A DNA stretch of 63,458 nt, counting the filler, from Klebsormidium nitens (lineage: Eukaryota; Plantae; Klebsormidiophyceae), in NCBI GenBank assembly GCA_000708835.1. It is 8 parts of 8 records of this genome, joined end to end, with 100 filler letters (N's around TTAATTAATTAA, not from the genome) between each part and the next. Parts side by side here need not be neighbours in the genome. Positions count along the whole stretch, not along the records: positions 26,737 to 39,221 come from DF238099.1; 7 more parts are not named here. One strand, written 5' to 3'. The number at the start of each line of letters is the position of its first letter. Position 1 is the first letter of the stretch. The notes under the pieces were generated by a model. The model ran no database searches and was not told the origin of the DNA. It saw only the letters and a list, made by a program, of their open reading frames with translations. The position numbers and the translations under genes are program-made. Positions 6,900-58,735 of the stretch are shown here, in pieces.

Positions 6900-6966
6900 A
6901 CCAAATGAAGTTCACCACAAAAACCAGCCGCGCGATGGCCGCCACGTGTCCCCCCCCGGCCCGGAA
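6900..6966 (+). repeat. Dispersed ~66-bp repeat, copy 1
   Basis: ACCAAATGAAGTTCACCACAAAA..CAGCCGCGCGATGGCCGCCACGTGT.CCCCCCGGC is nearly identical to 10015-10080. Confidence 0.85.
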
Positions 6967-9470: not shown

Positions 9471-10014
9471 GCATCAGGAAAGCAAGCTGCAATGATAAAA
9501 AAATTCTTTTATTAGACTGAGGCTCCAAATTGACAAGTATAATAGCAAGCTGACTGAGAAGCCAGCAGGCAAGTACAGGTAATGACAGTACACCATACCT
9601 TTGAAGCAGGCGTTGGAACGTGGAAGCCAGTCAGACCAAAGTCACGACACTGGAGCACATGTGAATTCGCCATTGATCATCTCTATCATACAAGGGATCT
9701 GGTCTGAGTCTTGCAGGTCCCAGCGCGCTTGCAGCGTGCTTCGGACAGCGCCACTTTTAGAGCAGAAACTTGGGTGTCTAAGGCCGTCCGAAATTTATTT
9801 TTCGGGTTTCCTGTCCCCCTTTTTTTGAGGATTTAAAAAGAAAAAAACCCATATAATATTCCCAGAATCTTGCTAGGAGACATGCTGGTGGTCAACAAAG
9901 TGGCCGAGAAAAACTCTCAAAACTTCAGCTAATATTCTCGAAGTTAGGCCCCGGAGACACCCCACTTGGCCAGACAGTGGCTGCGGAAAAGCCTCCAGAT
10001 TTGAACCCCTGCTG

Positions 10015-10080
10015 ACCAAATGAAGTTCACCACAAAAGTCAGCCGCGCGATGGCCGCCACGTGTACCCCCCGGCGCGGAA
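10015..10080 (+). repeat. Dispersed ~66-bp repeat, copy 2
   Basis: Same orientation as and near-identical to 6900-6966; lies at the contig end. Confidence 0.85.
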
Positions 10081-23798: not shown

Positions 23799-26636
23799 GG
23801 AAAATACTACGGTAGCTTGCATGTTGAGTTGAAGGACAAGTGTTTCGTTGAGAGTGTCAGATCGGTCACGGTGTCACTTATCACCTGCGTCCCCTGTTTC
23901 TCGTCTGGCGACCTTTTGGTGCGCTCCTCATGTAAAGCGAACAGTCTCTGGCAGCTGTTCGCAAGCAACTTGTTCCTGGCTGCACCCATCTAAGGAACAA
24001 GAAACCCAAAACCCAAGAAAGCCCGACAAAGAGGGGTTTGCGCTTAAAAAAGTTATTCCAAGTATTGCTTGTTGCAGGCATGCGTAACTCGGTGTCCATC
24101 TGGCGCTTTGCATGCTCCTGGCCGGAAGGTCCTGTGAGTAGCGCAGATGGCGATGCGCCCAGGGAAACGGACGCAGACAGCATCATCACTCTGGATAACG
24201 GGGCCCCTGACAAGTTCTGCGTGGATGGCAATGGAGAAGCTGACCCAAGGGACACCATGTAAGAAGCTCAGCGCGGCTTTGTGCATCTTGGAAGTCAGAA
24301 ATTCAAGCGTCCGAAAAGTCCTCCGAACCTGTGAACGCCCGAGGGCGTCATCTTTCGACCCCAAGCCACGGCGGATTGGGAAAGCCAAGTCGGGGCGAGT
24401 GCGAGGTGGCCGGAACCAACGGAGCTTGGTGAGTGGACTCTGGCCTCTGCTCAAGCCGAAATCTCCAGAGTTGGCTTAATCAAGTCTCATTGCCAAGCAC
24501 TGTGCCTGGTATCATACTTCGATTCGTATCGTCTCAACGCTGACGTGTGTCGGGGAGCACCAGCACGTCATTAATGCAAGGGTCGGCACGCGCTGATCGC
24601 TAGACTCCTGAGTCGCAGCTAGAAAGCAGACTCGAGACTGTCTTACGACAAGGGGGCGAGCCCACGTGACCAAATCTTGTTTGTCACTCGAGACCCTTAT
24701 CGCATCAGTTTCAAATCGTGCCATTAAAAGCCACTTTCAGCGACAGTACTACGGTCTATCGTTGCAGATTTCACATCCGATGTGTCGAGGTACTCTTTGA
24801 TTTTGTTCAAATGTAATAATAAGCAATAGCACTGACTTGATTGCTTGAACAGAACATGAAAATCGCTTAAGTTTCCGGTGTTCTGCAGGTCAGCATCGTC
24901 TTTGCAATGCAAATGTGCAAACTCGTGCTTCCTTCGGATACATGTATGAGAGAGAGAGCTTCGAGCTAGCCTAATAGCGTCCTTGAGTCTTTAGTTCAAA
25001 CCGTCCACGATGTTTGCCGATCATAGTAGGCATGTCTCGGTGCCCATTGGAATGCATCAGGCGATCCAGCTAGTGAAGAGCGGATGCAACTTGGAGATCA
25101 TATGTGCGGGACTTGATACGCATTGCATCACGTGGGTGCGGATGGGATGCCATCCGCTCTTGGCTCGAATCTTTATTGTGATGTTGTAAGCCAGTGCATT
25201 GGGTTCTTTCACTGCCTCTTTCGAATATGTATCAACCTTTCTTTGCAGAATTAGATACGATTGGGAGGCTTTATTTCTCGCAAATAGAAAGAACTTGGAG
25301 GTTCTCAAAGGCTTGGTCGATCAGTTCAATCATATTTGAAGAAACATGTCCGATGCTCTTCGTTTATGTATCATGCATAGATGAAGAGTTTACATCATGC
25401 GGCATGCATATTGAACGTGCAGTGTTAAGAATTGCCACTTCGTAAGTCTAACGTTGTATTCCATATGCAGCTAGGGTCACGACTAAATATAGTCTTTTAA
25501 AACTAGATTTGACCATCCCAATGGATCGTTACAAATCTAGGTGAAAGAGTGAATTCATCATGATATAAATGTTTAAACTCTCCACAAGAACTAGTAGGGT
25601 ACATTCCTTCATTCATATGTTTGTTAAGAGCTAGCCTGCATATACAACTCAATAGGTCTTAGCTTGCTTGAAAGATTGCGAGATTGCGACCGTCATTACA
25701 GCTCATGGAAACACAACTACAAAGCGTCTAGCTCGAGCCGGCCAGGCATACTAATATGATCTTTCATACCCCAACTATCCATAGTGTATATACTCGAAGC
25801 TCCAATTTTGAATACCACATTGAAATGGGAAGCCATTAAGCGACATGTATACGCCCGATACTAAAACAACATGAAGATTGAAGACATCCTTGAATAGCAG
25901 CCCAATGCATATGTATGTCTGTCAGTACATGCAAGGGCATGCAAAGAAGCCCGCATGAACGGAGTAAAAGTCATGAAATAAGGAGGAGCATGTCTGTCAG
26001 CAGAGTGCATTCCATCTCTAGTACGTTATGCACTGCACAAAACGTCTAGCGCCATACCGACGACTTCATGATCTTGCGCTTTAAATTGCACTATCTAACT
26101 GAGGCGACGTCATGCCCGGCGAAGAGCTTGTGTACTTGTACCCTTACAAACCCCTTGTAACGTGACCGGCCTGCCAGCACTACACAGGCTGCACACATCG
26201 TGTACCTACATTGAGACATTGCTTTGCCGGCATCTGAAACCTCCCATAAATCCAGGCCGGTGCCCCTTTTCAAGAGCAAAGGCTGAGCGTGTTTGGAGTG
26301 CATGACCGAGTGTCCCACCTGGTGGCGCAGTGCGTGGCACTGATATAGTGGGGGTAAGCTCGGCCTGTGAGTGGATGATCGGGCAAAGTCTGCCGGACGG
26401 TGAGACCGGGACGGTACAATGAGTTGACTTTGCAGCTTGCTACGGCTGCAACGTGGCTGCAACTTAGTTAAATGTCCAACGTGGATATAGGGCGGTGCGC
26501 AGGGACGGTGCGTCATGGGAGTCATACAGGAGAGTCCTCGTCTTGTCGACAACTAGGTTTTAATATCTGAGTCATCATCTCATCCAATGCCACCGGCCGG
26601 CCTGTGCAGTGTGCAGTGCCACACTGTGCCAGTCAT

Positions 26637-26737
26637 NNNNNNNNNNNNNNNNNNNNNNNNNNNNNNNNNNNNNNNNNNNNTTAATTAATTAANNNNNNNN
26701 NNNNNNNNNNNNNNNNNNNNNNNNNNNNNNNNNNNNC
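26637..26737. other. Artificial contig linker
   Basis: TTAATTAATTAA at 26681-26692 within Ns. Confidence 0.97.
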
Positions 26738-26813
26738 TGAAATTATACTGGCGCTGGATACCGTGACTGGCGGTGTACAGAATTCAAAGATGGGCACTTT
26801 TGGCTGATTCATG

Positions 26814-27365
26814 TTATCTGGGCGACGTGATTTCAGAAGCTTCGTGAGCCACTCGAGCCTTCAGCGGGTTTGCAAGCATCTCGAGGCCCAAAACCGGCTC
26901 AGTGTCGTCCCACACAACGCTCAGAGCACGACAGGAGAGTAACGGGGATACCGCTCTTGGTTCCATGCAATTCGTGGGAGATAACACTTCCTTTTCATGC
27001 ACGTCTGCATGGGTCGTTGAGATTTGCAACTTCCGTGCCCGACGTCGTGCTTGAGACGCGTGATTCAGGGCGGCTCGCCAGCTCACCTTTATTGTATATG
27101 GGCCATGCAAACTGGATTTGTCCCAAAAGGCGCTGAACCCCTGAGCGACAAGCGACCGCACGAGCTGTCTGGTTATATGACAAAGGTCGAACGGCTCCGT
27201 AAGAGCTCGCATGCCGGCCAGAGCCGCTGCATCCAAGGTGGTCTCGAGCTTGCCAAACTCTTGGTAAGATCTTACGATAGCTGATCGAGCGCTCTCAAGG
27301 ACGGACTTGTCCATCTCGATGATTGCGAAGCGCGATTGAGGACGATAGCCAAGAATTGCATCCAT
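26814..27365 (-). CDS. Hypothetical protein (183-aa ORF) downstream of the repeat array
   Basis: Open frame with protein-like composition; no recognisable motif; ATG not established. Confidence 0.3.
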   Translation of the reverse strand: MDAILGYRPQSRFAIIEMDKSVLESARSAIVRSYQEFGKLETTLDAAALAGMRALTEPFDLCHITRQLVRSLVAQGFSAFWDKSSLHGPYTIKVSWRAALNHASQARRRARKLQISTTHADVHEKEVLSPTNCMEPRAVSPLLSCRALSVVWDDTEPVLGLEMLANPLKARVAHEASEITSPR

Positions 27366-27589
27366 TCAAAACGTTGAAGTATGATGCACAAAAGAATCAC
27401 AAGGTACACAAGCAATTTTTTGAGTACGTGTGACGTCCACCCTAAATTGAGCGAGCGACAAGGAAGCATGTTCGTCTTGGGAAAACTCTTGCGCAGCGCA
27501 ATTGAAAGTTTTAAGACTGACGTTTGAGCACAATCTGGCAGACCGTATCAGTCAAAGCGGGATCCGAGCATGCGCTAGAGCCCGTATCG

Positions 27590-28140
27590 GAGGTCGCCAT
27601 CGTGCTCTACGAAGAAGCCTTCACGACAACGCAAATTGACGGCTCCGAGCTATGCGCTTTAATAGCACCACGAAGTGCCCGGTTTGGTTCGAGGGCGGGC
27701 CGTCAATTTGCACCATCGTGCTCTACAAAGAAGCCTTCACGACAACGCAAATTGACGGCTCCGAGCTATGTGCTTCAATAGCACCACGAAGTGCACGGTT
27801 TGCATGGTTCGAGGGCGGGGGCCGTCAATTTGCATCATCGTGCTATACAACGAAGCTTTCACAACAACACAAATTGACGGCTCCGAGCTATGATGCGCTT
27901 CAATAGCACCACGAAGCGCCCGGTTTGGTTCGAGGGCGGGGGCCGTCAATTTGCACCATCGTGCTATACAAAGAAGCTTTCACAACAACACAAATTGAGG
28001 GCTCCGATGGCTCCGAGCTATGATGCGCTTTAATTAATAGCACCACGAAGCGCCCGGTTTGGTTCGAAGTTGGGCCGTCAATTTGCACCATAATGCTATA
28101 AAATGAAGCTTTCGCAGCAGTGCATATTGACGGCTCAGCT
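27590..28140 (+). repeat. Tandem array of ~4.5 units of ~118-130 bp with alternating inverted motifs GCCGTCAATTTG / CAAATTGACGGC
   Basis: Units begin near 27597, 27716, 27836, 27957 and 28088 (CATCGTGCT.TAC..AGAAGC.TTCAC...CAAATTGACGGCTCCGAGCTATG...AATAGCACCACGAAG...GGGCCGTCAATTTGCA). Confidence 0.95.
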
Positions 28141-28388
28141 CGTACCATTCAGAACAACGCATGTCACAGAGTAGAGCACGGCGTGCTTTCAAGGCAAAGT
28201 CAAGTGAGCATAGGCGGCCGGTCTCATTGCGACATCCTTCAATCTTAAGTGAATTGTGTATCTGCCTTGTCGCTTCAATAAATCTTAAGACCAACGATAA
28301 ATATGGCCTTCTAAGACGCTACGTACACTCTGCGATGCATATTGATCGACTCTTCACCTGGCGCACTGACCACAACGTCTATGAATCA

Positions 28389-31300
28389 CTACCTTCTCGG
28401 ATTGATCATGCACTCCACCCCAGCGACCGGCTCCGGATTGAACCAACCGTACCGCTCATGCAGGCTCAACCAGATGGCGGGCGTCAACACGTGGGGATGC
28501 TTGAATTTGCCGCCGCTCCTCGAGGCCATATGGAGCTCGATCCCGAGGCCCGCTCTGAGCACGTTCCCCACCGCATTCCGCTTCTGAGCCTTCTTCTCCC
28601 TCACTTTCCCTTCGGCAGCCTTCGACGGCCTGGTGGTCTGCTGCACAAAGCCGTAAAGGTTGAAGATGGTCTTCAAACGGGCCTTGTTGGGCCCGATGTG
28701 CTCCGCATAGGCAGCCTGCACGCGCTCATCTGAGACCTCCCACCGCTCCGCCTGATGATTCAGCTCCCCCTCCTCGCAACCCACGAGGAATGCAAGCACG
28801 CGGACCGCAAACGGCACACGGTTGACGGGGTCGCGCACTTCCTGGACGTACTCCTGAATCACGCCCTCCCCGTTGACCTGCCCAAGTGCTCTGTCCAGGT
28901 CCGCGGCGAGGGCGTCGAAGCGATGCTCACGAAACCTACAAGTCACAAAAAGCGTCAGAGGGGCAGCAATTTAAGACTTCGGACGTACGGCGTCGTTGCA
29001 GCTGAAGACTCGGAAGGAAACAAAAATGAGCGGAAACTTTGGCTCTGAACAGATGCTGCAGACTTGAAGTTCACCGATCGCTCACTTTCGATGGAAGTTG
29101 AAGGCGGCAGGAGGGCTTCGATTCTTGCTCAATAGACACGGCACGACTGGAATGCGGCGCTTACCTCAGATACTTTGCGTGGGCCTCTCTTGTTCCCTTC
29201 GCCTCGTCCTCGTCAGCGCAAAAGCGGGTGTAGAAGTCGTGATCAACCCGGCTGGGGTCGACCTTGATCTCCTTCGTGACCATCTCGAACAGGAACTCCT
29301 TGAGCTCCTCCTTCGGGCTCAGGTCCTCCGGCCTCTCGCACAAAATCTCGTATTGCTCCGAGTTGATGATGTACTTCGCTCGCCACTCTTCAGCGGTCAG
29401 GAGCTCTGGCTCCGCATCGAAGCCGAGGGGCACCTCCGGGGGCGGGCTCCCGAGGCCGTCCTGGAATAGAAATGGTGGGACACCCGATCATTCCACGGAA
29501 ACAAACACGATTTTCAACTGGTGGTAGGGTGAGCACTGAATATCGACTTGAAAACGATAAGCCCTGCAAGTTTTTAGCACGGCCTCATGACCAGCCGCAA
29601 CAAACCAGGCTGAGAGTTGGCAGACCCGGAACCAGCCTAACCACAGCACAAAAACCAGCCTGACCGCGCCCCCAGATCAGCCTGAGCACGGCCCCAAAAC
29701 CAGCCGCAAACCAGGACCAGGGGAACCTCGGAACCAGCCTAAACGAGCCCCAAACCAGCCTGACCGCGCCCCAAGACCAACTTGATCGCGGCTCCAAAAG
29801 TAGCCTCAAATCCAGGCCACAACAGATCCGAACCAGCCTGACTGGCGCGCCCTCAAAATCAGCGTGACTGCGCCCCCAAATTAGCTTGTTAACGGGCTCG
29901 AAACCTGCCCCGAAACCAGACCCACAGCGAACCCGGAACCAGCCTCACCGCGGCCACAAATCAGCCTGAAGCCCCAGCCCCAAACAGCTTGACCGCGCCC
30001 TGAAACCAAGCCCACACCAGACCAAAAGAAAGGCCCACAGTAGACGCCAAAACAGCCTGACCTTGGCCTAAGATCATGCTGACCGCGACCCCAAGAGCAG
30101 TCCGTTAGCTTGACCCTACTCGAGCCTACTTGATCATNNNNNNNNNNNNNNNNNNNNNNNNNNNNNNNNNNNNNNNNNNNNNNNNNNNNNNNNNNNNNNN
30201 NNNNNNNNNNNNNNNNNNNNNNNNNNNNNNNNNNNNNNNNNNNNNNNNNNNNNNNNNNNNNNNNNNNNNNNNNNNNNNNNNNNNNNNNNNNNNNNNNNNN
30301 NNNNNNNNNNNNNNNNNNNNNNNNNNNNCCCCAAACAGCTTGACCGCGCCCTGAAACCAAGCCCACACCAGACCAAAAGAAAGGCCCACAGTAGACGCCA
30401 AAACAGCCTGACCTTGGCCTAAGATCATGCTGACCGCGACCCCAAGAGCAGTCCGTTAGCTTGACCCTACTCGAGCCTACTTGATCATTGCAACCGAAAG
30501 GGCCACTTGACGGGCTTGACAATCTGCACCTCCTAATAGATTTGAATATACAGAACAACCTGTGCAACTTGTCGACCGAGCCATGCCGGGCGCTTTTCAG
30601 TTTCCGCATCACTACTCGGCAGTCTCACCGTTGGCTCGACGTGCTCGACCGTCACCTGGTAGCCCTGCTTTTCGAGGTCGGCCTTCAGCTTCGGCACGTA
30701 CTCCAGATAGCTTTCAACCTTGGCGAGGATGTTGTTTGCGTACAAGACGCAGCTCGCCGAGGAGCGGTCGCAGATGCCCTGCGAACCCCTCAGGAACTGG
30801 AAGCCGGCCGCGTCGCCGAGCATCTTGACGATCTGCTTGTCGTCCCGCTCGATGGCTTGAAAGACCGCCTCTGTAGAGCGCAGCAGGTCCACTGCAGTGC
30901 TCACCGCCTGCTTGTAGTAGATGGTGGAGTTAGTGACCGTTCGGAAGCGAGCATGCTGCTGGAGCATCGTCTCAACGGCGGGGCCGTTGAGGTTGTTGAG
31001 GGCGAAGGCGACCGTCTCCTCAGCGTACGGCTTCTCTTTCGAGACACCTGGGCCGAGCTTTGGAGAGAACGCCACACAGTCCGCTTCCAAGTAGGTGTCT
31101 GGGTCGGCCATCGCCTTCTGGAAGAACTCCTCGTCGGCTTTCGACCTCTTGTCGGCGTGCAGGAAGATGCCGCGTCGATCAGACTTGAGGGGCGGGTTCT
31201 CGATGTTGAAATGGTGTTCGAGGTGTTTCACGAAGCGCTTGGAGGTCGACGGGCACTGCGCAACAAGAGTCAAGAGCACGGCTGTTAGCTCCTAAACCAC

Positions 31301-34300
31301 AAAGGACCTATGGCAAGAGCAGATGATGCGACCTGCTGCGACCTGCTGCGACCGTTCTGACAGAGACCCGTTCGCAAAAGACAAACCGTGTAGTCTTTTA
31401 GCACGACACGGGACAGGCAGTGCCCACTTAGTACCCACTTGGCTTCCATCAGTAGTGGAATTTGCAAGGGCCAGACAACCAAACAGAGAAGATGCTTTGC
31501 ATGTCTGCCTTAAACCTTGGACATAGACGCTCTCTCACGGTGCTTGAGAAGATCACATGGATGTTCAAATCGAGCGCGCTGTGCACAAGGCTTGTTAGTG
31601 CAGGAAGGTCTGAAGGAAGAACTCACAACGACTTTCGTGCCTCGAGCGACACGGTCCAGCACATCCCGTACTGCGGCGTCGATGCAGTCGAGCAGCCCGC
31701 TCCCAAGCGGAAAGATCCGGATGGTCGCATGCCTCTCGGCCGGGTACAAGCCCGTGTTCCGGATGGTGTGGAGAACCGCATCCGGCCGCACCATGAAGAG
31801 GTACTCCATCACCCGTGCGCAGTCGATGTTGGCGTCCATTCCGATGACGACCTTCGATCCCCCAACAGCCGCCTCCAAGCAGGACAGCACCCGGCCCCGT
31901 TGGGACATGACCTCGGAGTTGAGGTTGGTGAGCACCATGTCCATCTCGTCCATCCCCACGAGGTCCATTTTGGCGCGCACGCGGTGAATGGAGTTGATGC
32001 AGATGACGGCGCGAGAGGCGGCGATTGGCCCCGGGGGCGCCTCCAGGTACAGCACCACGCCTTCCACGCCCGCCTCCACCAGGTCCTCGTGGTACTTGCG
32101 GGACAGCGAGATGTTAGCCCCGATCAGGACGAAGGAGAGGCCGGGGTTCAACTTGACCATGGCCACAAGCCACGCAATGAACTCCTTCGACTTTCCGACC
32201 CCCTTCTTGGCCGAAATCAGGATGGTTCGCTTGCGCACGTGAGCGAGCTTGAACGCGGGGTAGGGGCGCATTCCCAGGTTCTCCTCGTAGTCCTCCGTCC
32301 ATCCCAGCGTGGTGAGGATGTCCAGGGGCAGCACGCGGCACTCGCCCCTGCAAAGAGGGAACAAGAGGCGCTCTCAACAACAGCCCAAGCACCTTAACAC
32401 GATGCGGGGTACACGATGCGGGGTATTGAAATGTCTATTAGACCAATTGGCCGAATCCAGTCTGAGGCGCCCTTAAGAGAGCTTGATCGAGGCCCTTAAC
32501 CTAGCCGGGTTGCGGCTTCGAACGAGGCTTGACTACAACCTTACTACAGCCTTTCCGATTCAGCCTCACCACGCCCCAAAAAAAGCGCGATCGCGGCCCC
32601 CCAACCAGCCTGACCGCAGCCTCGAACCTAAGCCCACAGCAGACCCGCGACCAGGCCCACAGCGTAGCAAAAGCAGCCTCACCGTGGCTTGGAAGATGCC
32701 TGAAACCTGACCCTGGCCTTGAAAATTGTACCATCTAAGTTTCATTGTGAAGAACGGCCTGTGCAGATTGACGGCCGAGCCATGCCGTGCGCTTTCTTGG
32801 AATACAGAGCCGATCAACTCAGCGAAGAGGCCTGACAGATTGCACCGACTGACAAGGGTGAATGTAAAGAACGGTCTGTGCAGATTGACGGCCGAGCCAT
32901 GCCGTGCGCTTTCGTGAAGTACAGAGCCGATCCAACTCGAAGAGCTTGACAAACTGCACTGACTTACAAGCATGAATGTAAAGAACGGCCTGTGCAAATT
33001 GACGGCCGAGCCATGCTTGCCGCTTCTCTGAAACTGCTAGACCCAGTTTCAGAGAAGCTTTCAAAGAGCTTGACAAAGTGCATTGCTTTAAGAGGCTTCG
33101 GTGTATAGACCCTCGTGCAGATTGACAGCCCAGGGCCAGGCTTGATGCTTCCACATCTTGCTGAGCCGGTCAACCTTGAAAGAGCTCGAAAATCTGCACC
33201 ACCTTTTAAACTCGAATGTAAAGAGCGACCAATGCAACTTGTCGGCCGAGCCATGCCGGCCGCTTTTCAGGCTTCAGCTCACTACAAGGGCGCCTCACCT
33301 GCAGTTGTTGGCAAAGCACTGGTAGCGGGCGATGCGCGGCTCGTCCCGCTTGTATATCAGGTACGGGTTCTGGTTGCCGGGGGACGTGTGGCGCCTGCCC
33401 GCGATGACGCACGTGGGCTCGGGCGCGCGAAAGTGGACGAAGAACAGCCCCGGCCGCTCCTGCACCACCCGGTTGATCTCGACCCCTGCGTGGTCCTCCT
33501 GGTAGCGGGCGAGGAGGACGGCCCGCTCTTGCGCGCTCAGGTCCTCGCGGGGCCCCTCCGAGGTGCTCGCCTCATCGAGGGCGAGCGCCCTCTGCCGGAA
33601 GGCCCCCACGCGGGCCGGGGCAGGAGGGTCGCGCCGCGCGGTCGCCCACTCTCCGAGAAGGTCGCCGCTGATCTCGGTGGAACCAGCCAGCTCCGCTTCC
33701 GAGTAAAGGCAGACCAGGTGGTCAGCGATCGCCTCGGAGCTGCCCTCGCAGGGGACGAGGGCGCGAAGACGGTCCCCAAACTTGGAGGACCTGAGCATTC
33801 GGAAGCAGCGATGTTGCCCGTAGACGGACCCGTCCCAGATGTAGGCGGATCCGCCGTCCTTCCGCAGGAGCTCAGCACTCGGCTTTAGGTCGTCCGGGGG
33901 ATTCTCCAAGAAGCACCCAAAGGCCTTCCCGAATGCCCTCCTGGCTTCCAGCCCCCTCAGGCAGAACCCCTCCAGCACCTCGTGCACGCTGTACTTGAAC
34001 TCTTGCTTCGGGGGCCGCGCTGAACCGTGCGCCTCGCAAGCTTGGAAACGGAGCGCACCCTCGGGGACGTTCAGCACCGAGGTTAGAAACCGGTCCCTGA
34101 CCAGGTGGAAAGCCTCCAGGCGCCGTTCGAAGTCGCTCGGGTCCTCGGTTGGGAGCGAAAAGTCCAGGTCGAAGTAGATGCGCCAGCAGGCATCGTCCTG
34201 GATGAGCTCGTACAGGTGCGCAAACAGCCCGAGCGACCTCCGGTGCGCCACCAAGGCCGCGACATCCTTGAAGCTGCCGTAGCGCTTTGCCCCCTCCTGG

Positions 34301-35106
34301 TGCACATCCTCCGCCACCACAATTGCACGCCCGTTTGCCCGCCGTTGCCGGAGTGCCTCCACTAGCTTCTTGCACCAGCCGGGCCCACTATCTTCGACCG
34401 ACGCAGCCTGAGGGGGATCCCCAAGCAGCTGCGCGGCAGGCTCCGAGGGCGGAAGTGCGGACGACAGCTCTGCGGACGGCTCCGCTGTAGCGGGCCAGCT
34501 TGTGTCCGCTGCCCGGGGCTGGTTTGGCGGGTCGGCTGCAAGCGCCTGGTCGACGGGCGGCTGCTCTTGGTGGGTGGGGGAAGGGGAAGGGGCAGCTGCT
34601 GGGGGCTGACTGGGAACCACCTCGGGCTGTGCTTTTTCGAGGGGGGGCGGGGCTATGATCGGGGGCTCTTCGGGCTGGTCAGCGAGGGGGGGAGAGGGTG
34701 GGTGCCCGGGGGAGGGGGGCTCATCATGGGGTTGCGAGAGGGAGGGGGAAGGCAAACCCGGATCCGCGTCTATAGGGGGCTGGTCGGCCGGCGGCGACGG
34801 CGGGGCCCGTTCGTCTTCCACGGCCGGTGAAGAGGGGGCTCCTGTGGGGGTCTGCTCCGCGCTCGGGGGGGAATCTTCCCCCCGAGAAGGGAGGACGACA
34901 GGGGGCAGAGAGGAGGAAGGGCTCGGGTCCTGGTCCATGGTGCGGGCCAGGGCATCCCCCGTCCCACGTGGAGCACCCAGGGGTCGCACGCGCCCATAGC
35001 TTTTCAGCCGCTTCTCTCGTGCGGCCGCCTCTTCGGCGTCCCGTTTGGCTCTCAGGCGATCGACCAGGGCCCCGACGTCTGGGATGGGAGCGTCGGTCAC
35101 CAGCGC
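28389..35106 (-). CDS. Spliced AEP/PrimPol primase - Zn finger - UL9-like (origin-binding) SF2 helicase fusion, ~1,330 codons
   Basis: Exons 35106-33299, 32347-31627, 31255-30629, 29460-29165 and 28935-28389 join in phase at canonical GT-AG sites (3,999 nt). AEP motifs YELI...IYFDLDF, KYSVH, DGSVYGQHRCFRMLRSSK; Zn finger C..GRRH...N...C...C; Walker A AKKGVGKS; motif II MDEMD; MDANID; FSPKLGPGVS; QQHARFR. The first in-frame ATG is at 34938; further 5' exons are possible. Confidence 0.85.
29590..30486 (+). repeat. Intronic degenerate satellite (AACCAGCCTGACCGCGCCCC-like units), spanning a gap with duplicated flanks
   Basis: Many variant units. The sequence at ~29980-30137 recurs at 30329-30486 across the N gap 30138-30328. 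Confidence 0.85.
32570..32720 (+). repeat. Second intronic patch of the CCAGCCTGACCGC satellite
   Basis: CCAACCAGCCTGACCGCAGCC, CAGCCTCACC and CCTGACCCTGGCCT are shared with 29590-30486. Confidence 0.65.
32745..33290 (+). repeat. Intronic tandem array, ~5 units of ~115-125 bp, homologous to the 27590-28140 array
   Basis: Units AATGTAAAGAACGGCCTGTGCA(G/A)ATTGACGGCCGAGCCATGCC near 32745, 32861, 32976, 33101 and 33215; one more copy at ~30505-30615. Confidence 0.85.
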
Positions 35107-35299
35107 CTGCGCCAAAATAGTCGAAAGGGTTCGAATTCATGTTCAAGAGTAAGCCAGGTCAGGCATTTATGGTCAGGCTTGCAACCCTACAACGCCCTTA
35201 TTGCAGCAAGGCCGCATGTTTGACAGCACTTGAAGCCTCTAACGAAAGACCGCCAGCTACACCAGGCTGCCTGCCAAGGTGTTGTGGAACAGTATGCGC

Positions 35300-38200
35300 A
35301 CGAGCTGATCAAGCGACGTCAACAGCGGCAAATACAGGTGCATGCACAGAAGTCCACTCGGCCGCTTCAGGACAAAGGTATGCTCCACGGCAACTTACGA
35401 CGGGGCGTGCACGAGGCGGGCCTTCGAAATCACCCAGCTCGGTTTGATGAACGGCTTGCCCCTCGCGCTGCGTTCTAGATGTCCTCAATGCCCCCACAGC
35501 TTGCAGATGAGCTGCCGCAGCCGCTCGACCGGCCGCCCGAGCTGCCTCTTCCATGGTAGTAGGATTCGCTTTTGCCCTTTTGCTGAAGATGCGCAAGAAG
35601 AGAGAGCATATCAAACGCTCTGAAAATGCAGACCACTGTTGGGCAACGGCTTGCTACTTGCGAGATTTGGAAGAACTCAGAGGTAATCAAGTGAGCCCCG
35701 AGGGATGCCCTTGCTGCTCATAGTGCCTAAGGAAGCAACTGAAGGCATCCGGCACACAAGTATCACCTTTGTGTCGGAGATGAGAAGTCCAGAGAAATAC
35801 CCGGGTCAAAGAACTTACCGCCGCTTCTTTGAGGCCGGCCGATCAGTCTTTTGGGCCCGCGGCGTTGACGTCCTTGCTTCGCTGACCTGGTTCCGTTCCT
35901 GAAGTCCAATAAGATTACAAATGGGTGAGCTTTTGGGAGCGCACGTGGTCAGCAACCGCGGCGGTAAGAATGCCCATGGGCGTGGTAGGCTGGGCTCCAA
36001 AGAGGCGCAAAATACTCGATGCCAACAAGCCTCGAGGAATTGAAGCGTTGCTGGTGCATGCAAAAGTTGAGGTTTGGCAGCAGTGTGTCCTTCTTAAAGG
36101 GCCATGGTCGTGCCGGGCCCTGCCTTGCGCGCACAAATATGCAAGTGAAAGACCTGAACACTTTCAGATTCTAGCAGAGAGTTTAGAAGCACCAATACCT
36201 CCTTGGAAGGAAGCGATGGGCTCACCAGGTCGGGCGCTGTGGGTACGGACTACGCCTTTCCGGCAGCTCCTGCTCTCGGGCCTCGGCACCATCGCTGCGG
36301 CGGCAAGAAGCAGTCAACCTCTGACGACTCACTATGCGAAAGTGTACGCGGAGACGAACGAGCACATTTTGAGACCGGGTCGAGGAATGGATTTGGGACC
36401 GGATTGAACTCCAAATCAAAGCATCCGATTCGGGGTCGCAATTGGAACCTGTTTCTTGATCATGCTGAAAGAGTTCATCAACTGCAGCGCCATCGGAATT
36501 AAAGTGAGGCAATCCTAGAGCAGGGCCTCACGTTTCTAGACGCTCCAGATCTGGCGAGGAGAGTGGGCCGAACGTCTCCTCCTCTCTCGCCACCCAAGCC
36601 TCTCGCTGCTGTCTGCTCTCTGCAAAGAAGTCGGCAACCACTCGCTCCTGCATGGCCATGCCAGCGCCCATCGCGGCGGCTGCCCGCGGCCCGCTCGGAC
36701 GATCCACTGAGGTCCTCCTCAAGCTCTCCGGCCTCCCTAATATCGAGGAGAAGGAGAGCAGGATTAGAGAGTTCGGACGTCATACAGGCTGATGACTTGA
36801 TGCAGATGCAATCACTGAAACAGTCTCGCTGTGTTGCGCACTGTTCGTAACAAGGCAATTGACAAAAACGGATGACCGACCTCATGGGCGATGCGTGTTT
36901 TGAATCCTGGCACAGGTGCTTACCGTGTGCGCGCGCCAGTAGTCGGTTCGATCACGCTGCCTGTGGCGAGGTCTGTAGGGGCTCCGCCTTCAAGTTCAGA
37001 GAGCTTGAAGAGTCTCCTCCTTCCCCTCCTCTTTGACGAAACCTGCACACCAAGCCCCTTTCCACTAAACCGGATGATGTATTTGAGACCCACGTGCTGA
37101 CTAGCTTACCTGAAGCAACGACCGAAACCTGGCAGCATGGTCATGAAGTGCAGCTTCAGAAGCTCCCCAATTCGTGGAGCGTGGAGGGAAGTACATCGAA
37201 CCTGTGGGGGCTCTTACCTGCTCTGGCGGCCTCTTCGTGCCGACACCGGATCCCGAACTCTGCGATTGGTCCGCGCTGGCGTGTCGCCGATCCTCAGGGC
37301 CGTCCCTTGCCTGCAACAGGGATGCGCACACAGTCTGTAGGACTTCGAACCTAGCTGGGGCGTTTGACCCTAAAACCCGAAACCCTAAAAACACACAGCA
37401 TCGTTGCGAGTCGAGTCATGTGGCAGGACCGCGGTCAATTACACATTGCTCGGAACCAAGCTGACCTAACGGAGTGGGGAGCCAGATGCATGGGCTGACA
37501 ACTTGCACCTCGGGTTTTATACAATCGCTTTTTCGAGCCAGTGCAAATTGTCTAGGGCCTGGTCCAGAAACACTGCCCGATCGCTGCCGTCAATCTGCAC
37601 CTCGGATGTTAAACACTCACTTCTTCCAGCCTGTGCAAATTGTCTGGGCCCTGATCCATGAACAACAATGACTCTAAAAACACTCCCTGACGGGTGCTTG
37701 CTCACATCATGAGGAGGCGGCTGAGCGACTACTCCGGCCGCCCCGACGTTGCGTACTGGCATGTCGCCTCCCGATGCTAGGGGACTGTTCCCTTCGGTCG
37801 ATGGGAACCCCGGATTGCTCTCGACCCCGCCGATAATCAAGAGCTTTGCTGCAAAAGGGTCAACGGACGAATTAAACTTCCTCGACGTCCATCAATCTAG
37901 ACCCTGATCCGCTCACACGACCTTCAAAGAAGAGCGGCTAACCTTGAAGAGCAGGCAGCTTTCACCGAAAGTTTCTGCAATCGAACAAGCTGGATCAGTC
38001 TCCAATTGAGTGTTCTGCTACCGGGTCGAGCTGAATAAAGACCTGACTTGGTCTCTCTTCACTAAGTGACCTGACACGCGCTAGACTTGGTGCCAAGGCA
38101 TCAGAATGACTTACCGATCAGGTCTCTGCTTTTGGGAGTTGAATCCCACCAGTACTCGTTCTCGTGCCATTCGTTGCAACCTGTGGAGAAGAGAGGTGGT

Positions 38201-39150
38201 GATTGAATCGCGCATAACACAGGGAGGACTCGCAGCACTCAGCACAAGCTCAAATGAATTCGAGCTTTACGAGCATTCTCAGGGTAACCGGGAGACAGCA
38301 TAGAGGAGAGCCTGGCAGACTGCCCGTAGTTGCGCTGGCAGCAAGATTTAAGCTGGACCGAATCAAGGGTCGTCAAAGCAAGAGGCACAAATCCGCGGCT
38401 TTAGAGGCTTACAAACCCTCACCCCGATTGCCCTTGAGCCGCGCCTCCTCGTCGAGCGACCGCGCTAGCTCTCTCTTCAACTTGTACACTTCGCAGTCAA
38501 GTGCCCACTCTGAAAAATAAGGCACGAAGAACATGATTTTCCAAGTGACAAGCGCTCACATGCAGAACATGTCCAGGCTGTGGACGATAGCCACTGTGTA
38601 CACTTGCAAACTTGCAGATTCGCATGCTTGGGCCTAGCACAGCTCTTGGACGAGTGACCTCAAATTGTGGAGGCCATAGTGCGCCGGCACAACGGCACCC
38701 GCATAGAACTCACCTGCCCGGGCCGTCTCAATCTGGAAGCAGCCAGGTTTGAACAGGCGATGCACACCGCAGAAGTATTTGAAATTGCCCCCTTCCTTGC
38801 CCCCGCGCATCGCAAAGGTCGCGGGGTTGCTGCAATCTCCGCAGAGGAGGCTGTGTGGAACTGGAAGGGAAAGCACGAAGAGTTGGGATGAGAGTCGAGA
38901 CACCTGTGAAACTCATGTGAACGTAGAGGCTCGCATTCTCGTAGCACTGGCCGCGGACATGGGAGCTCTGCACAGACTTTGCAAACTCCGGGACCCTAAA
39001 GCAAGAGTGCCCCCCCAAGCTTTGGACCTGACTCACGCAAAGGCCCAATCGGGTACTTCGGTCAGACTGGCCCGATTTAGGTGCCGCTCCTCACCTTTGT
39101 CCCCAAAGAGGTAGCTGGTCAGTTCCTCCCTCGCTCTCCTCGCTCTCCTG
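35300..39150 (-). CDS. Unresolved multi-exon hypothetical gene upstream of (possibly continuous with) the primase-helicase
   Basis: A string of short exon-like segments with GT-AG ends, including CGDCSNPATFAMRGGKEGGNFKYFCGVH (C2-CH Zn-finger-like) and LLIIGGVESNPGFP (2A-like). The model could not be closed. Confidence 0.3.
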
Positions 39151-39221
39151 GATGCGCCACCAGCTGGGGGCCGGGCCTGGCTCGTGGCAGCTGGGCTCGC
39201 GTGCGCTGGGCTCGCAGCAGT

Positions 39222-39321
39222 NNNNNNNNNNNNNNNNNNNNNNNNNNNNNNNNNNNNNNNNNNNNTTAATTAATTAANNNNNNNNNNNNNNNNNNNNNNN
39301 NNNNNNNNNNNNNNNNNNNNN
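39222..39321. other. Artificial contig linker
   Basis: TTAATTAATTAA at 39266-39277 within Ns. Confidence 0.97.
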
Positions 39322-40123
39322 TAGCTACCGGGGGAGTCCCCACAGGGGGCTCGGGAAAGCTAGCGCCGTTACAAAACGAAACAGATATGGGGCGGGGGGG
39401 GTCGTGGATTGGAGGGGGAAAGAACGGGGCCTCGCACAGAGGGGATGGAGCTAACGTTGAAGGGAGGCGAGCCAGCAGAGGAACATCTGGGGAGCGCTGC
39501 ACGGGAAGACCCTCAGGGCATGGGGAATGCGGAAGTGCCTGAACCTCCAACAGTGACAAGGAAGCGTTCAAGGGTGAGCAGGCAATTCGGTGCGGCTCAA
39601 CACTTGCAGGCATCAACATACTCCTAAAGCTGTTATCTTCATACGAGACATCAGTCCTCACTGTCCATTTTGAAGGAAAGGAGGAATGGTCTCTGTTTTC
39701 GTGTTCTGGGTCTAAATTTGATTCAAAGCAAGAACAATGACATATGTCCTCTTTTGGGGCCCATGGATTGTCCGCTGTTCTTGGGCCATTTCTGAGCACT
39801 CTCGCATCTCTCATGCACCTCGTGCCCTTTCAATGTTATTGCAAGCTGCAAGCTTCTTCAAATACATGGCAACTACGGGTCCTCTTTCTTTGATTCCCTA
39901 TTTGTTACCCGGCTTCTGCTGAGTATTCTGGCGTCATCCAGCACCAAACTCTAAATCACTGATTGTTGTCAAGATAGCAAAGACCAAGCATCACAGAGTC
40001 AAACCGATTTTTAGACATCGCCTCTCAGGATAGCTGCCACCATACCCTCAAGCCATCTGTGCCCACTCAAGACCTCTCCTTACAAGCCAGAATGATCTGA
40101 CGTGTCACTTCGTTTTGTGACAG

Positions 40124-40993
40124 ATGCTCCGCGAGCTGGAAAGCCGCTTGAAAGACACAGAAGACACAGTTTCCTTCTCCCAAGGCCAAGGACAGGAAGA
40201 TCAGACCACAAGTCCCATCAGCAAGCCGGGCCGGCGGCGCGCGACACCTTCTCAATGGTGGGGCAATCAGATTAGCGCTCCCTGTCCTTACTCCAAAGAG
40301 AAGGCCCCTGGCAAGCGGAGGAAGGGTGTGAAAGCTCCAAAGTCGCCCGGTCAGCAGTCATCAAATGCAGCGGTGCCGGACGAGCAGCGGTGCAACAGGA
40401 GCGATGGGAAGAAGTGGCGGTGCAGCAAACAGCGCGCATTCGATCGCAAGGTGTGTGAGGATCACCGGCAGTCTCGAAAGAAGCCAAGCGCGCGCAAGGC
40501 GGGGACTAATTCGGGGACAGCGCGGAAAAAAGGACGGGGGCGGTCGGTCACAGATGCCGGCAGCCTGGGTGGCGAGGAAGGACAAGCTGATGGGAAAGCT
40601 CCTTCGGGGTTTGGAGGATCCAGGTCTGCAGGAGGAGTACGAGGGGCGCAAACTCAGGGGGGGGCAGAACGGGTTGTAAGAGGCTCGGCTGAGGTTGCGG
40701 AAGCAGGGCGGGCAAGGGGGGATGACGTCAGCAAGGGGCCGAACGGATCCGCAGGGACGCGCGTAAGGGCTTCGAAGAGGCGCTGGTGGGAGGCGAACGG
40801 ATCGGGGGCTACCGGAGAGAAGGGGAAGAGATTGGAGCAAAGCGAAGGTTCGGACGGCCTTCCACTCCTAAAGGAGGATGCTTCAGAAGGAGAAATTGTT
40901 GGAGCTAGGGCCAGCGATATTGGGGTTGGCGCCAATGAGACGGTGCCACGTGTCGATCAGAGCCGTTCAGAGGGCCCTCCTGGGCCCTCCTGA
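40124..40993 (+). CDS. WRC zinc-finger domain protein (exon; full gene model unresolved)
   Basis: EQRCNRSDGKKWRCSKQRAFDRKVCEDH matches WRC C-x9-C-x10-C-x2-H. The rest is low-complexity. Confidence 0.75.
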   Translation: MLRELESRLKDTEDTVSFSQGQGQEDQTTSPISKPGRRRATPSQWWGNQISAPCPYSKEKAPGKRRKGVKAPKSPGQQSSNAAVPDEQRCNRSDGKKWRCSKQRAFDRKVCEDHRQSRKKPSARKAGTNSGTARKKGRGRSVTDAGSLGGEEGQADGKAPSGFGGSRSAGGVRGAQTQGGAERVVRGSAEVAEAGRARGDDVSKGPNGSAGTRVRASKRRWWEANGSGATGEKGKRLEQSEGSDGLPLLKEDASEGEIVGARASDIGVGANETVPRVDQSRSEGPPGPS

Positions 40994-42204
40994 GAACGAC
41001 ACCACTGGGGAAGGTTTGCCAACGCAAGAAAGCGGGATGGAAAATGTCGAGGCAGGGAGGGGGCAAGCATGAAAGTGAATGTAAAGCGATCAGACGGATG
41101 CACTAGTAGGTAGTGAATAACAGATGTTGGTGAAAGCAGATTCAGTGAAACTTGGTGCGTGCCTGGCAAGAGAGGTGACGTCCGTGATAGAGTAGTAAGC
41201 CAGCTTGTCGCGGTCGCCCCTAAGAGGAAAGTAGAAGAAGCGGCATGAGAAACCTGGTTGCCTGAGAAGGGCGACTACTGTAAGAATAAGATTGGAGGAT
41301 TTCGGTGGTCGAGTAGAGGGCAGGCACCGGGGGATGCGAACTTGGAGAAGAGGCAGACAAAGGTTGCGGCACTCTGAAACCAGAATTGCGCAGGGGTTGC
41401 AAAGTCTTACACTCTCATTCAGACCCGCGGTATCTAGATTGTTCGGGCTCAGCCTGAGTTGGGGCGCAAGCCTAGGAAGGCAGGGGGACGCCGAGTTAGA
41501 TGCAACCGAAGTGCCGCCGGGCGGGGAGTCAAAGGTTGGTCATTGACCTTCAAGCGTATTTTTGGAACTTCGTCTTTCTTTATCTCGTCTGTTGTATCGA
41601 ACTTGTGTGTGCTTCTCCTTTGAGCTTAGGACCTCGCCACTGTACACGCGGGTTATTTGCGCAATATACTCGGTCAACTCTCCTCCCATCGGAGGAGTGT
41701 CTGGTGGAAGCCTGAAGGGAGAGGTTCAATTCGCTTTGTGTACATTACTTGTCAAGCAATTTACTTACGGAAATAGCGCGCAATGTGCACAGTGAGTCTG
41801 CTGTGGGAATGAACAGAAGAGAACGGTGTAAAGACAAATTCCTTACTGTGTTCTATATCTGACAAAAAGCACCCCGCTGTGATGGTTGGCCAGCTATATG
41901 CAGGGAGCTGGCAGGATAACTACACACGATCAGCTAACATGTGCGGAAACCATGAAAGCAGGCGTTCTCAAGCGATGGCGCAGCTCAGAAAAATTGCTGC
42001 CTTGCTGGAAGGACGTCTGGGAAGTGACTGGATGCAGCTAGGGGCGCTGCCCTGATCTGCCTCTCCACGATTCTTGACTGACTGAACGCAGGCAGAAACA
42101 AGACTCTGGAATCTTGAAGGATGTCCTGAGGGACTTGTCCAACAAGAGAACAGAAGTTGTCTTGAGCAGAAAGACAGCAATTTTTCTGAGCTGCGCCATC
42201 GCTT

Positions 42205-42304
42205 NNNNNNNNNNNNNNNNNNNNNNNNNNNNNNNNNNNNNNNNNNNNTTAATTAATTAANNNNNNNNNNNNNNNNNNNNNNNNNNNNNNNNNNNNNNNN
42301 NNNN
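42205..42304. other. Artificial contig linker
   Basis: TTAATTAATTAA at 42249-42260 within Ns. Confidence 0.97.
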
Positions 42305-42372
42305 CCTAAACCCTAAAACTAACCTAACCAAACCCTAAAACCCTAAAACCCTCAAACCCTAAAACCCTAAAA
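42305..42372 (-). repeat. Telomere-type repeat (CCCTAAAA)n, degenerate, at contig start
   Basis: CCTAAACCCTAAAACTAACCTAACCAAACCCTAAAACCCTAAAACCCTCAAACCCTAAAACCCTAAAA. Confidence 0.88.
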
Positions 42373-43525
42373 AGGTATTGCGTACGCTGGCGTCAATACC
42401 CTACACTAGAACTGTATGTGGGTCTCACCGTCGATGGCGGCTTGAGAATCCCATCGAGCGGTTTACCGACAACATTCATAATGTCCCAGTGGAATCTTGG
42501 ACCGGTCGGGTTATTACCGGTATGGCAAAAGGAGTGCCAGTCGGCACGGCACTTTGTAAATCGAGATCTACCGGGCCAAGGTACCGTGATCCGGATTCAC
42601 CGTATCAATACGGTAGAATTTCGAATCAGAGTACCGGTAGGTAATCCCTAGTGCCGTGTGGTCCTACGGTACATTCGATCAGCACGTCACGGACTCGCGC
42701 TGGTCTCGAGGGTGCGTATCCTACCGGGCCGAGTTATCTGCCCCGGGCCTTCAAGTTTGAGAGGTTGGATTCTGCCGCAGATCAGATTGAAGATTCTGTT
42801 GATTCGACAGACGAAATACCTGTTACAAAGTCCTGGACAGCTGCCTTGCCTGAGATGAGACTGAAGAAGACCACAGTACCGCAGTATTTTCGCCCGGTTG
42901 AACCAAGGTCCGCTAGTCACTTGCGATCTTTCGTCGATTTCCGGTTGCTGCCTGGTGGCGGCCAGGACTTGCTCACAGAAGCGACACGTCGCTTGTCAAA
43001 AGGCCGTGTGTGGCCCCCCTTATGACGTCAGCGCCAGACTTGTAGAGAGGACGTGTGTGGTTGAAGGAAGCTGCCTCACCGGCAACGCAAGGTGCAGACA
43101 GACCGTGCTCTCTTCTCGACTGTTCTCCCTGTTCTCCCCGCGTGCGTCTCCCTTAGCAAAGTTTCGTCACGCTGCCTTCTTGCTGTGAGCGTCCTAGGCC
43201 TGGAAGAGCAACCCTTGGGCGCCCACACCGCAGCTTGCTCCCCCTGTGGAAAACCTTGGAACCCTACACAAGCCATACACGGTTTAGTGTGTCGTCTCCC
43301 AAGAACATCTGTTGTGCGCACAGCTGGCAAGAGGGTGCTGGTTCTGTTGGTTCTTCAGGTGGTGCACGCCCGTCTTGTTGTCCCCTCTATCATCTGCTGA
43401 GTCTGCTCAAGATTGTCATATCCTCGAGCGCAGCAGGTTCGCCTCCTCTACCCCCCCCTCTCCCCTTTTTCAGCTCTGGCTGGCCCTCTGCGGGCTAGCT
43501 GGTGCTGTCCTGCCTACCAGGCACA

Positions 43526-52084: not shown

Positions 52085-53746
52085 GTTTGGATACAATATA
52101 CCAACAAAATAATCTCGGACGTCGATCCATGTCGCTTTGAGTGACACTATTCGCACTGCATACCGGACCATGTAGGAGAGCTTCGGAAAAACACCCGGTC
52201 CCTTCTCGGCCCACCATGATCTCCCATCTCTTAGATCGTACTCGAGGAGTGTCGGTGATTCATGTAGACAAATTCGTAGTAGATATGACCCGAGATGTCT
52301 GTCAGGTACGGCAAGGTGGTCACGGACGGGGTCGATGGTACTCGCCGGCTGCGAGACCATTTCGTAGTAGCTTTCCCCCCCCCTTCAGAAAGGGCCGTTC
52401 TCGGACGCCGACCCAGTTCCCATCTCATCCATCTCTGAGATCAGAGCTCTGGCACTGCTGATGATTCATGAAGACAGATACGCAATGAAAAAACCGAGGT
52501 GTCTGCCTATGGGTGACACGAGGTGGCAAAGGGATCCGGTTGAGATTGCTGGTTGCGAGACGAAAACGTAGTAGAATTTTTGTCTTCATCGAGGAGACAA
52601 AACAACCGGCAACGATTTATAGCCCGGCCCATAAACACATGTACTTCATGTTCATCTTCTCAACATGAACACAACTCGCTTTCCTTTTATACATATTCAT
52701 CGCCCTTTTTCTCATAATCTCTCCTTAATATGACTTCTTATGATACATAACCAGATACTTAGTATACTTAACGCGCACGGAACTAAAATATTAATATTCT
52801 TGTACTATATGGTATGGCTATAGTATTGGGATGAGTAGTGCTATGGTGGTCATGAGTTACATGATCACTGTTATTCGGATCTTTGGAAGATGAATATGGC
52901 CGACATATTCTATGGGACCTATTAATATTCCGGTTTTTTCCGGGTGCTCCGGTTTCTACTAGGACCCTGACGATTCGTCGTCGGGAGGTTTGTCTTCATG
53001 ATCGAAAACCCCGAAAATGTACAACCGGCAAACCGGTCCTCTTCATAGAATCGAGAGTCTCTTCACGAACCCTCTACATGAGCACTTTTTGCGATCTCAA
53101 CCGGTTCGTCCGGCCGGAAGCTATGTAGACGATATTTTCTACTACGATTCGTACTAGGGCGGTATAAGGGGGGCGCTTGGTGTACATCCTCTCGGAGAGA
53201 GACGTTTTTCGAGACGCGCGTGAAGACGAAACCGGATTCCCGAGCAACCGGCAGCCCCTGAGATGATGATGAATCTCAACTAACCCGAAAATCTATCCGG
53301 TTGTCCGGTTGGTTGGAAAATTTCGTAGTATATTTCGTAGTAGACATGGTTTCATGAAGAGGAGGGTATGACCACAGTCCGAAAAATTTGCTGTACAGCC
53401 CATTTTTCCTACTACGACTTTCTTTGGATGAATACGAAGGGATACATTTGTTAGGTTCCTCTCGGTGAAAGACGCATCCGTAAACGATCATCGAGACGAA
53501 GTCTTTGAAAAGCCATGTACTGATCTCCCGGGACCATAGATGAACCTGAAGTGGCCCCGAATCCTTGCCGGCTGTTCGGATTCCGGGAACCTTTTGTAGC
53601 AGTTCTCGTAGTACGAAGAATTTCATGAAGACGAGACGGCCCGACCAGGGAACACCGGACACTGTGTACCGGATGGTTTGTTTGGTTGAAGCGCGGATCT
53701 ACCCGCGTCTATTCTTCCTGAATCCGTTTCGGAGCAATACAGGAAG

Positions 53747-55206: not shown

Positions 55207-55262
55207 GGAAGTGAGCTGCCGTGAGACAGATACCTTCTGGAGGACCGGCTAGAGAGGGAATC

Positions 55263-55718: not shown

Positions 55719-55725
55719 TCGTCTT

Positions 55726-56055: not shown

Positions 56056-56074
56056 CGCGGAATGGGATCGTACT

Positions 56075-58708: not shown

Positions 58709-58735
58709 ATAATCCCTCGGTTTGCTTTCGGCTCG

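Follow-up and report, generated by a model that had tools for sequence, protein, structure and literature searches.

A spliced, virus-type primase and origin-binding helicase gene with inverted box pairs in Klebsormidium nitens: a candidate self-copying DNA element

We analyzed a 63,458-nt stretch of DNA (hereafter, the window) from the alga Klebsormidium nitens (assembly GCA_000708835.1), in which contig DF238099.1, at positions 26737–39221, carries on its minus strand a gene fusing an archaeo-eukaryotic primase (AEP) domain to a UL9-like superfamily 2 (SF2) helicase. The gene is spliced and its domains are identifiable; it exists in many copies, transcripts of the family are spliced, coding differences show an excess of synonymous changes, and, within the window, inverted box pairs are confined to the gene and its immediate flank. 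We put at about even the chance that the gene belongs to a dispersed selfish DNA element, likely about 12–13 kb in size, whose single protein would bind its own boxes and start its own copying. Between a mobile element and a domesticated gene family, we lean toward the mobile element. The window consists of eight joined parts with 100-N filler between them, adjoining parts need not be neighbors in the genome, and both ends of the gene's contig (26737 and 39221) are gaps. No published description of this gene family was found in the literature searched; the lists of viral-origin genes of Klebsormidium held in supplements may include it.

A reading made from the sequence alone (the sequence-only reading) had proposed five minus-strand exons joined at GT-AG sites into one frame of 3,999 nt, and this structure stands. 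The splice encodes 1,332 aa with a single terminal stop, compared with 31 and 19 stops in the two other frames, and the four introns (951, 371, 1,168 and 229 nt) are all GT-AG. Each of the four joints was found in contigs of public sequencing runs, mostly from sister copies; the prospect that the predicted junctions are not spliced, which would have counted against the gene model, is thus not borne out for the family. The kinds of these runs (RNA or DNA) are guesses: X5 and X12, guessed to be DNA, show mainly exon cover and yet contain spliced joints. The 1,168-nt junction occurs in four of four RNA-guessed runs and the 229-nt junction in three, whereas the 371-nt junction is exact in two and sits a single base away in the remaining two. 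The 951-nt intron is joined in X5 and X12 and appears as a loose end in X6. A single X5 contig covers exons 1–3 in spliced form, with 52 differences in 1,928 nt, and the two DNA-guessed runs that contain this copy gave none of the three spliced joints listed. Most junction contigs are 90–99% like this copy, and those at least 99% alike number only 19/134, 5/107, 9/94 and 8/107 in the four RNA-guessed runs, so that splicing is demonstrated at the level of the family and not for this copy. Within the 1,168-nt intron, a 160-nt exact duplicate (29978–30137 and 30329–30488) flanks a 191-N gap; it is probably an assembly overlap, and the true intron may therefore be shorter.

The gene does not start at 35106, as the five-exon model had it. 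Eleven further GT-AG exons run upstream to the contig edge (Table 1), and the gene start is hidden in the gap past 39221. Joints between 5′ exons are present in public contigs (38860–39095, 37310–37809 and 35104–35398), and by tblastn the 1,945-aa K. nitens model P0022 matches 8 of the 11 exons, the remaining three being matched by models P0001 and P0002. Near 36660, the 5′ frame of this copy departs from that of its paralogues: inclusion of a 69-nt exon (36294–36226) is followed by a stop, while skipping it leaves 5,250 nt open (1,749 aa). Either splice form may be made; the bin of this exon has zero cover in all four RNA-guessed runs, an absence to which we give no weight. An ATG at 35554 was rejected as the start of the family because the paralogues carry other residues there and continue upstream. 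The 5′ exons encode a small C-x2-C...C-x2-H motif (best Pfam match only E 0.05), a degenerate 2A-like motif and low-complexity sequence. The 2A-like motif departs from the canonical 2A/StopGo pattern D(V/I)ExNPGP, with D replaced by G in all four sequences and the final P present in one of the four. This failure of the canonical motif speaks against an active 2A, and the motif is probably inactive in this copy, judging from its residues. A similar peptide, IGGVEMNPGP, is reported in the cited passage to have yielded the upstream product only (PMC13405545).

The sequence-only call, an AEP primase with a Zn motif joined to a UL9-like SF2 helicase, is borne out by Pfam, profile, Atlas and fold searches and by sequence motifs taken together. 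Exon 2 matches the Pfam family Herpes_ori_bp (Table 1). A six-paralogue profile searched against the PDB, in which PrimPol and a UL9-type origin-binding protein (OBP) had been expected, matched both, with the herpes simplex virus 1 (HSV-1) OBP at the top (E 6.5e-9) and human PrimPol at E 2.4e-4. The primase region finds no match with Pfam alone; Atlas places it at 0.98 with viral clusters, of whose members 37% carry AEP_C962R and 17% Herpes_UL52. This copy retains every one of the 11 motifs that were checked. An earlier fold from four sequences reached a predicted local distance difference test score (pLDDT) of 32. The usable fold model, that of paralogue P0003, is confident over the helicase only (about residues 430–760); its top PDB match is the HSV-1 OBP (E 2e-15), and among viral proteins two with origin-binding domains from Pyramimonas orientalis virus rank highest. 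Beyond the helicase, the C-terminal region has no profile match. The helicase also resembles the plasmid initiator CyRepA1 (E 4e-26; 19 plasmid records), at 92 bits against an NCBIfam cut-off of 200 and thus below it, and phage origin-binding proteins (288 records). Several giant viruses recur among the origin-binding helicase matches listed, Catovirus CTV1 in four rows, Bodo saltans virus in three and Pyramimonas orientalis virus in two, a hint that these genes also multiply within viral genomes.

The fusion is of virus type, as had been claimed: AEP joined to a UL9-like SF2 helicase is reported for mimivirus R8, pF1055L of African swine fever virus (ASFV), some mriyaviruses (SF2_hel), Ostreid herpesvirus 1 and SmDNAV (PMC11253617; 10.64898/2026.08.29.747986). 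Like the viral R8/F1055L type, the K. nitens protein has an N-terminal AEP with intact catalytic motifs and a C-terminal UL9-like SF2 helicase in one chain, and the exon 1–2 junction that links them is present in contigs. Unlike the viral proteins, it is extended N-terminally by up to ~840 aa and is encoded in the nucleus by a gene that is interrupted by 15 introns and exists in several dispersed copies; no virion genes lie nearby, the gene has its own box arrays, and identity to viral or metagenomic relatives is at most 27%.

The sequence-only reading had also described one ~120-bp repeat family immediately 3′ of the gene and inside two of its introns. The locations were correct, whereas the idea of a single family was not: the common unit is an inverted box pair, which occurs in a third intron as well (37705–37311). 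Periods are 116–122 nt in the 3′ array and about 114–117 and 92 nt in the intron arrays, and blastn found no alignment of the 3′ array with the intron arrays. The conserved unit consists of two inverted ~11-nt boxes with the consensus G(A/T)CAANNTGCA, set 33–34 nt apart. For a 13-nt motif, 17 matches were counted where 3.6 were expected, and 15 of the matches lie within 27631–37598. Allowing up to two mismatches, there are 11 box pairs (0.1 in shuffles), all at 27756–37644, in or beside the gene, and none in the remaining ~53 kb of the window. Between sub-arrays, the boxes are 68% and the spacers 37% identical (38 pairs), and such conservation at fixed spacing is the look that protein-binding sites would be expected to have. 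A hairpin was rejected as the common function of the repeat, since only the 3′ units fold well (z −3.5 to −5.8 against shuffles for three 3′ units; −0.06 to −1.3 for six intron units) and the arms do not co-vary (match 10.73/15 within units and 10.71 across units). A genome-wide miniature transposon is likewise disfavored by the absence from the window of any pair outside the gene and by the lack of a depth excess over the arrays. Rfam gave no match across 24000–43000. The 951-nt (33298–32348) and 1,168-nt (30628–29461) introns are homologous from the donor GT onward (78% over 116 nt) and carry the same GC-rich minisatellite, as if one of them had been copied to a second site.

Nor is this the single-copy ordinary host gene without repeats that would have undercut the sequence-only reading: that alternative fails on copy number and on the linked boxes, while streptophyte orthologues are weakly tested, their absence being taken from word-based protein searches, in which K. 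nitens is the sole named eukaryote. One such search returned 20 proteins, 6 from K. nitens and 14 metagenomic, the latter at no more than 27% identity. K. nitens has eight gene models on eight contigs, none of which is this copy; their cores are 76–86% identical to it in amino acids, and four are complete, with all motifs, and four partial. In DNA run X1, which contains this copy, zero-difference contigs have a depth of 10.8–19.6 and exon bins sum to 78–170, a ratio that agrees with roughly ten copies, contig depth being a rough guide and no formal copy number. In model P0002, exon 1 is followed by sequence that maps to 29298, and an X12 contig has a 3,891-nt deletion from 33192 to 29300; the two are a shared internally deleted form. 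Contigs of DNA runs have deletions of 102, 126 and 134 nt within introns. Other copies thus appear to keep their introns and to differ in their number of repeat units, as would suit spread by way of DNA.

Among 40 of 306 and 40 of 1,015 difference rows listed, 33 of 61 distinct coding differences are synonymous, against an expectation of 24.6% for random changes (p 8e-7) and 34.2% for transitions only (p 1e-3). Where the sequence-only reading had seen recent activity or selection in the intact frame, this synonymous excess supports purifying selection; recent activity of this copy is not supported, given paralogues at 76–86% and the departure of its 5′ frame. CpG ratios were uninformative.

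A mechanism can be outlined for the element that we favor. By analogy with UL9 on the inverted boxes of the herpes oriS, the C-terminal region would bind the boxes, and the SF2 helicase would then open the 33–34-nt spacer. The AEP domain would make primers for host polymerases to extend, giving extra DNA copies with introns retained. These copies might re-enter chromosomes through host break repair or through an integrase from elsewhere, a route that we propose because no integrase was detected in the interval bounded by the flanking genes. Copies that are truncated or carry internal deletions would represent decayed or non-autonomous members. More tentatively, and well short of an even chance, the family could be a new transposase-less class of eukaryotic mobile element, in which a primase/origin-binding helicase fires iteron-like boxes in its introns and 3′ flank as a private origin and spreads as over-replicated copies reinserted by host repair.

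Several known systems share parts of this design. The HSV-1 oriS has inverted boxes around an AT-rich spacer, as described in the cited passage (PMC12543377). The likeness to UL9 and oriS lies in the helicase, whose top PDB match by both profile and fold is the herpesvirus protein, and in the inverted boxes that flank a spacer in both cases; in contrast, the K. nitens spacers show no more than a mild AT enrichment and there are 11 repeats of the pair, mammalian-herpesvirus UL9 has no intact AEP, and a likeness to its C-terminal DNA-binding domain is putative. Among initiators of plasmids and phages that consist of one protein, CyRepA1, phiHAP-1 RepA and N15/PY54 resemble the K. nitens protein in that a primase fused to a related SF2 helicase is described as the replicon's own initiator (PMC4889955), but these systems are bacterial, N15/PY54 use a DnaG-type primase, and the match is to the helicase only and below the NCBIfam cut-off. 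Helitrons and Replitrons, according to the cited sections (PMC6431247, PMC10288648), are eukaryotic copy-and-paste elements that encode replication in one large gene, which may contain introns, and that have non-autonomous derivatives; their HUH endonuclease is indispensable to them, and none was detected here, where a UL9-like SF2 helicase is instead fused to a primase. Transpovirons, as presented in the source passages (PMC11788076), are small selfish DNAs that carry a helicase and an internal tandem repeat and integrate although no dedicated integrase is evident; they differ in being linear 7-kb episomes of giant viruses, bounded by terminal inverted repeats and encoding several genes, whereas no terminal repeats were found here.

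Host-type genes flank the locus. A WD40 gene ends near 24260, a WRC-domain open reading frame (ORF) begins near 40120, and an ATP synthase gene also lies in the surroundings. No HUH or Rep family of the kind that defines Helitrons and Replitrons was found in the gene, in the 1,945-aa paralogue or in the nearby ORFs scanned (outside gaps), and none of the features of a Polinton, Polinton-like virus (PLV) or mriyavirus provirus (capsid, packaging ATPase, pPolB, integrase) occurs among the ORFs scanned between the flanking genes (outside gaps). No giant-virus gene cluster is present at the locus, which carries the host-type WD40, WRC and ATP synthase genes instead. Immediately 3′ of the boxes lies a block (Table 1) whose depth in DNA runs X1 and X3 (270–370 over 26737–27570) is 2–3 times that of the gene exons; it may be either the 3′ end of the element or a separate repeat. 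Its 183-aa ORF has a weak Atlas lead (0.80) to giant-virus DUF5759 and no Pfam, PHROG, NCBIfam or viral-contig match. Viral contigs were also scanned with alignments of the paralogues and of the helicase, with exon 2, with the L002 protein, with the first 96 aa of the 3′ ORF and with the box-pair pattern; none of these scans gave a match.

Table 1. Features of the primase–helicase gene and its repeats (window positions; a point marks features without strand)
Feature	Positions	Strand	Details
Eleven 5′ exons	35399..39221	-	39221-39095, 38860-38714, 38509-38423, 38180-38115, 37848-37706, 37310-37218, 37042-36924, 36736-36532, 36294-36226, 35898-35819, 35582-35399
2A-like motif LLIIGGVESNPG	37797..37848	-	Next residue F here, P in one and W in two paralogues
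Two box pairs, 5′ intron 37705-37311	37490..37664	.	Period 92 nt
Exon 1 of the five-exon model	33299..35106	-	Proline-rich linker, AEP primase (YFDLD, SVH, WDGSVY/CFR), Zn motif C-x-IAGR-x-H-x-S...CFAN-x-C
Box array, 951-nt intron	32700..33270	.	Four complete pairs and a half unit, then GC-rich minisatellite
Exon 2	31627..32347	-	UL9-like SF2 helicase RecA1; Walker A KKGVGKS, Walker B DEMD; Pfam PF02399, E 8.7e-15
Exon 3	30629..31255	-	Helicase RecA2; FSPKLGPGVS, QQHARFR
One box pair, start of 1,168-nt intron	30505..30628	.	Minisatellite about 29580-30480
Exon 4	29165..29460	-	C-terminal helical region; candidate DNA-binding role
Exon 5 and stop codon	28389..28935	-	RNA-guessed contigs reach on to about 28176-28193
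3′ tandem array	27597..28136	.	4.4 units of 116-122 nt; four complete box pairs; last unit ends before second box at 27597
3′ adjacent block	26737..27596	-	183-aa ORF (27365-26814)

A number of observations weigh against a self-copying element. Pfam scans of the ORFs between the WD40 and WRC genes revealed neither a transposase or integrase nor an HUH nuclease, a reverse transcriptase or a capsid. The terminal repeats and target duplication that mark cut-and-paste transposons (MULE, KDZ and Academ types) were not found between the flanks, where the ends fall in gaps, and no empty insertion site was seen. In the P0003 fold, residues 763–1106 have a pLDDT below 50, and the model resolves neither the C-terminal region nor the primase. 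The box pattern was derived from the very units in which it is counted, which makes its confinement the informative result; the spacers are only mildly AT-rich (56%, against 46–50% in the introns), and with two of the box-bearing introns homologous, part of the spread of the boxes may be intron copying. The annotated copies are old, at 76–86% amino acid identity, with the closest pair of gene models at 93%. The synonymous count covers only part of the difference rows and is therefore indicative. Finally, 15 introns, a GC content at third codon positions (GC3) of 0.81 and spliced transcripts in several studies give the family the look of a host gene.

These last features are what would be expected had K. 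nitens long ago captured a viral primase–helicase that acquired introns and settled in as a host gene family serving in repriming or repair, multiplied by segmental duplication, with boxes that are autoregulatory or an intron-borne repeat. The host-like GC3, the synonymous excess and the lack of any mobility gene found agree with such a history, as do the spliced contigs, which come from runs of several studies and carry three further organism labels; a precedent is that eukaryotic PrimPol has been described as a giant-virus-like inheritance in the cited text (PMC6222260). We nevertheless hold domestication to be improbable: separate contigs carry the copies, one half of the models consists of partial or internally deleted forms, word-based searches turned up no other named eukaryote, the 5′ part of this copy leaves the family frame, and box pairs of fixed spacing at four separate places are unexpected for an ordinary gene. 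A decaying, nonfunctional relic of giant endogenous virus insertions, multiplied together with the viral region, is very improbable. Giant-virus regions are reported in Klebsormidium (PMC5294986), an intronless virus-like ORF cluster lies 14 kb off, and the fold search came closest to origin-binding proteins from a giant virus of algae, but host-type genes separate the gene from that cluster, no viral core genes adjoin it, and a relic is not suited by motifs that are intact, an excess of synonymous changes, numerous introns and transcripts that are spliced.

It is also conceivable, if rather unlikely, that a larger mobile unit, whether a transposon of cut-and-paste or recombinase type or a small integrated virus, has the gene as its replication module; the boxes would serve that unit, and its integrase would lie in a gap, past the 3′ block or in a master copy elsewhere. 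The gaps at both contig ends, the hidden gene start and the 3′ block, with its high depth and its weak giant-virus lead, leave room for such a unit, and an AEP with a UL9-like helicase is described as part of mriyaviruses and other viruses in the source consulted (PMC11253617). Distant relatives, moreover, sit on gene-dense metagenome contigs, one of them beside a GIY-YIG nuclease. Against a larger unit, host-type genes bracket the locus within about 16 kb plus the two gaps, with no integrase or virion gene detected between them; the 183-aa ORF has no match in Pfam, PHROG, NCBIfam or viral contigs; and the only transposase fragment of the window, a Kyakuja-Dileera-Zisupton (KDZ) piece at 61588–62154 (Pfam E 6e-5, below the curated cut-off), is 22 kb from the gene and beyond unrelated genes.

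Other features of the window were recorded alongside. The intronless virus-like cluster spans 53690–59449 and comprises ORFs at 53750–54640 (+; PHROG anti-repressor, E 1e-4), 54487–55206 (+), 55215–55718 (+), 56075–57880 (−; PHROG DNA helicase, E 2.6e-18, with Helicase_C) and 58709–59449 (+); it is likely a separate endogenous viral fragment. Viral-origin genes in Klebsormidium are said, in the passage cited, to tend toward methylation (PMC12344493). A 504-aa open frame at 290–1804 (+) has no Pfam, PHROG or NCBIfam match, and a 64-nt repeat in two copies (6893–6956 and 10008–10071; 91% identical) is unrelated to the gene. A telomere-like (AAACCCTA)n run occupies 42305–42372, at a contig start inside a scaffold, and two short copies occur in an intron of the gene near 37374–37389. 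Outside the window, metagenome contig L002 encodes at 886–4487 an AEP and an origin-binding helicase in the same order, at ~20% identity, beside an unannotated 260-aa ORF.

To our knowledge, the self-copying DNA elements described from eukaryotes depend either on an HUH nuclease, as Helitrons and Replitrons do, or on a polymerase together with an integrase, as Polintons do. If the element that we favor is real, a primase joined to a UL9-like origin-binding helicase would be a third route for self-copying DNA in eukaryotes, and a close algal relative of land plants would hold a replication origin that is defined in sequence and directly testable. If it further represents a new class, a viral replication initiator would persist as a nuclear, plasmid-like selfish gene. 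Even if the family has been domesticated, a streptophyte nucleus would contain a viral initiator that is intact, spliced and present in several copies, and for which the sequence itself suggests a candidate binding site.

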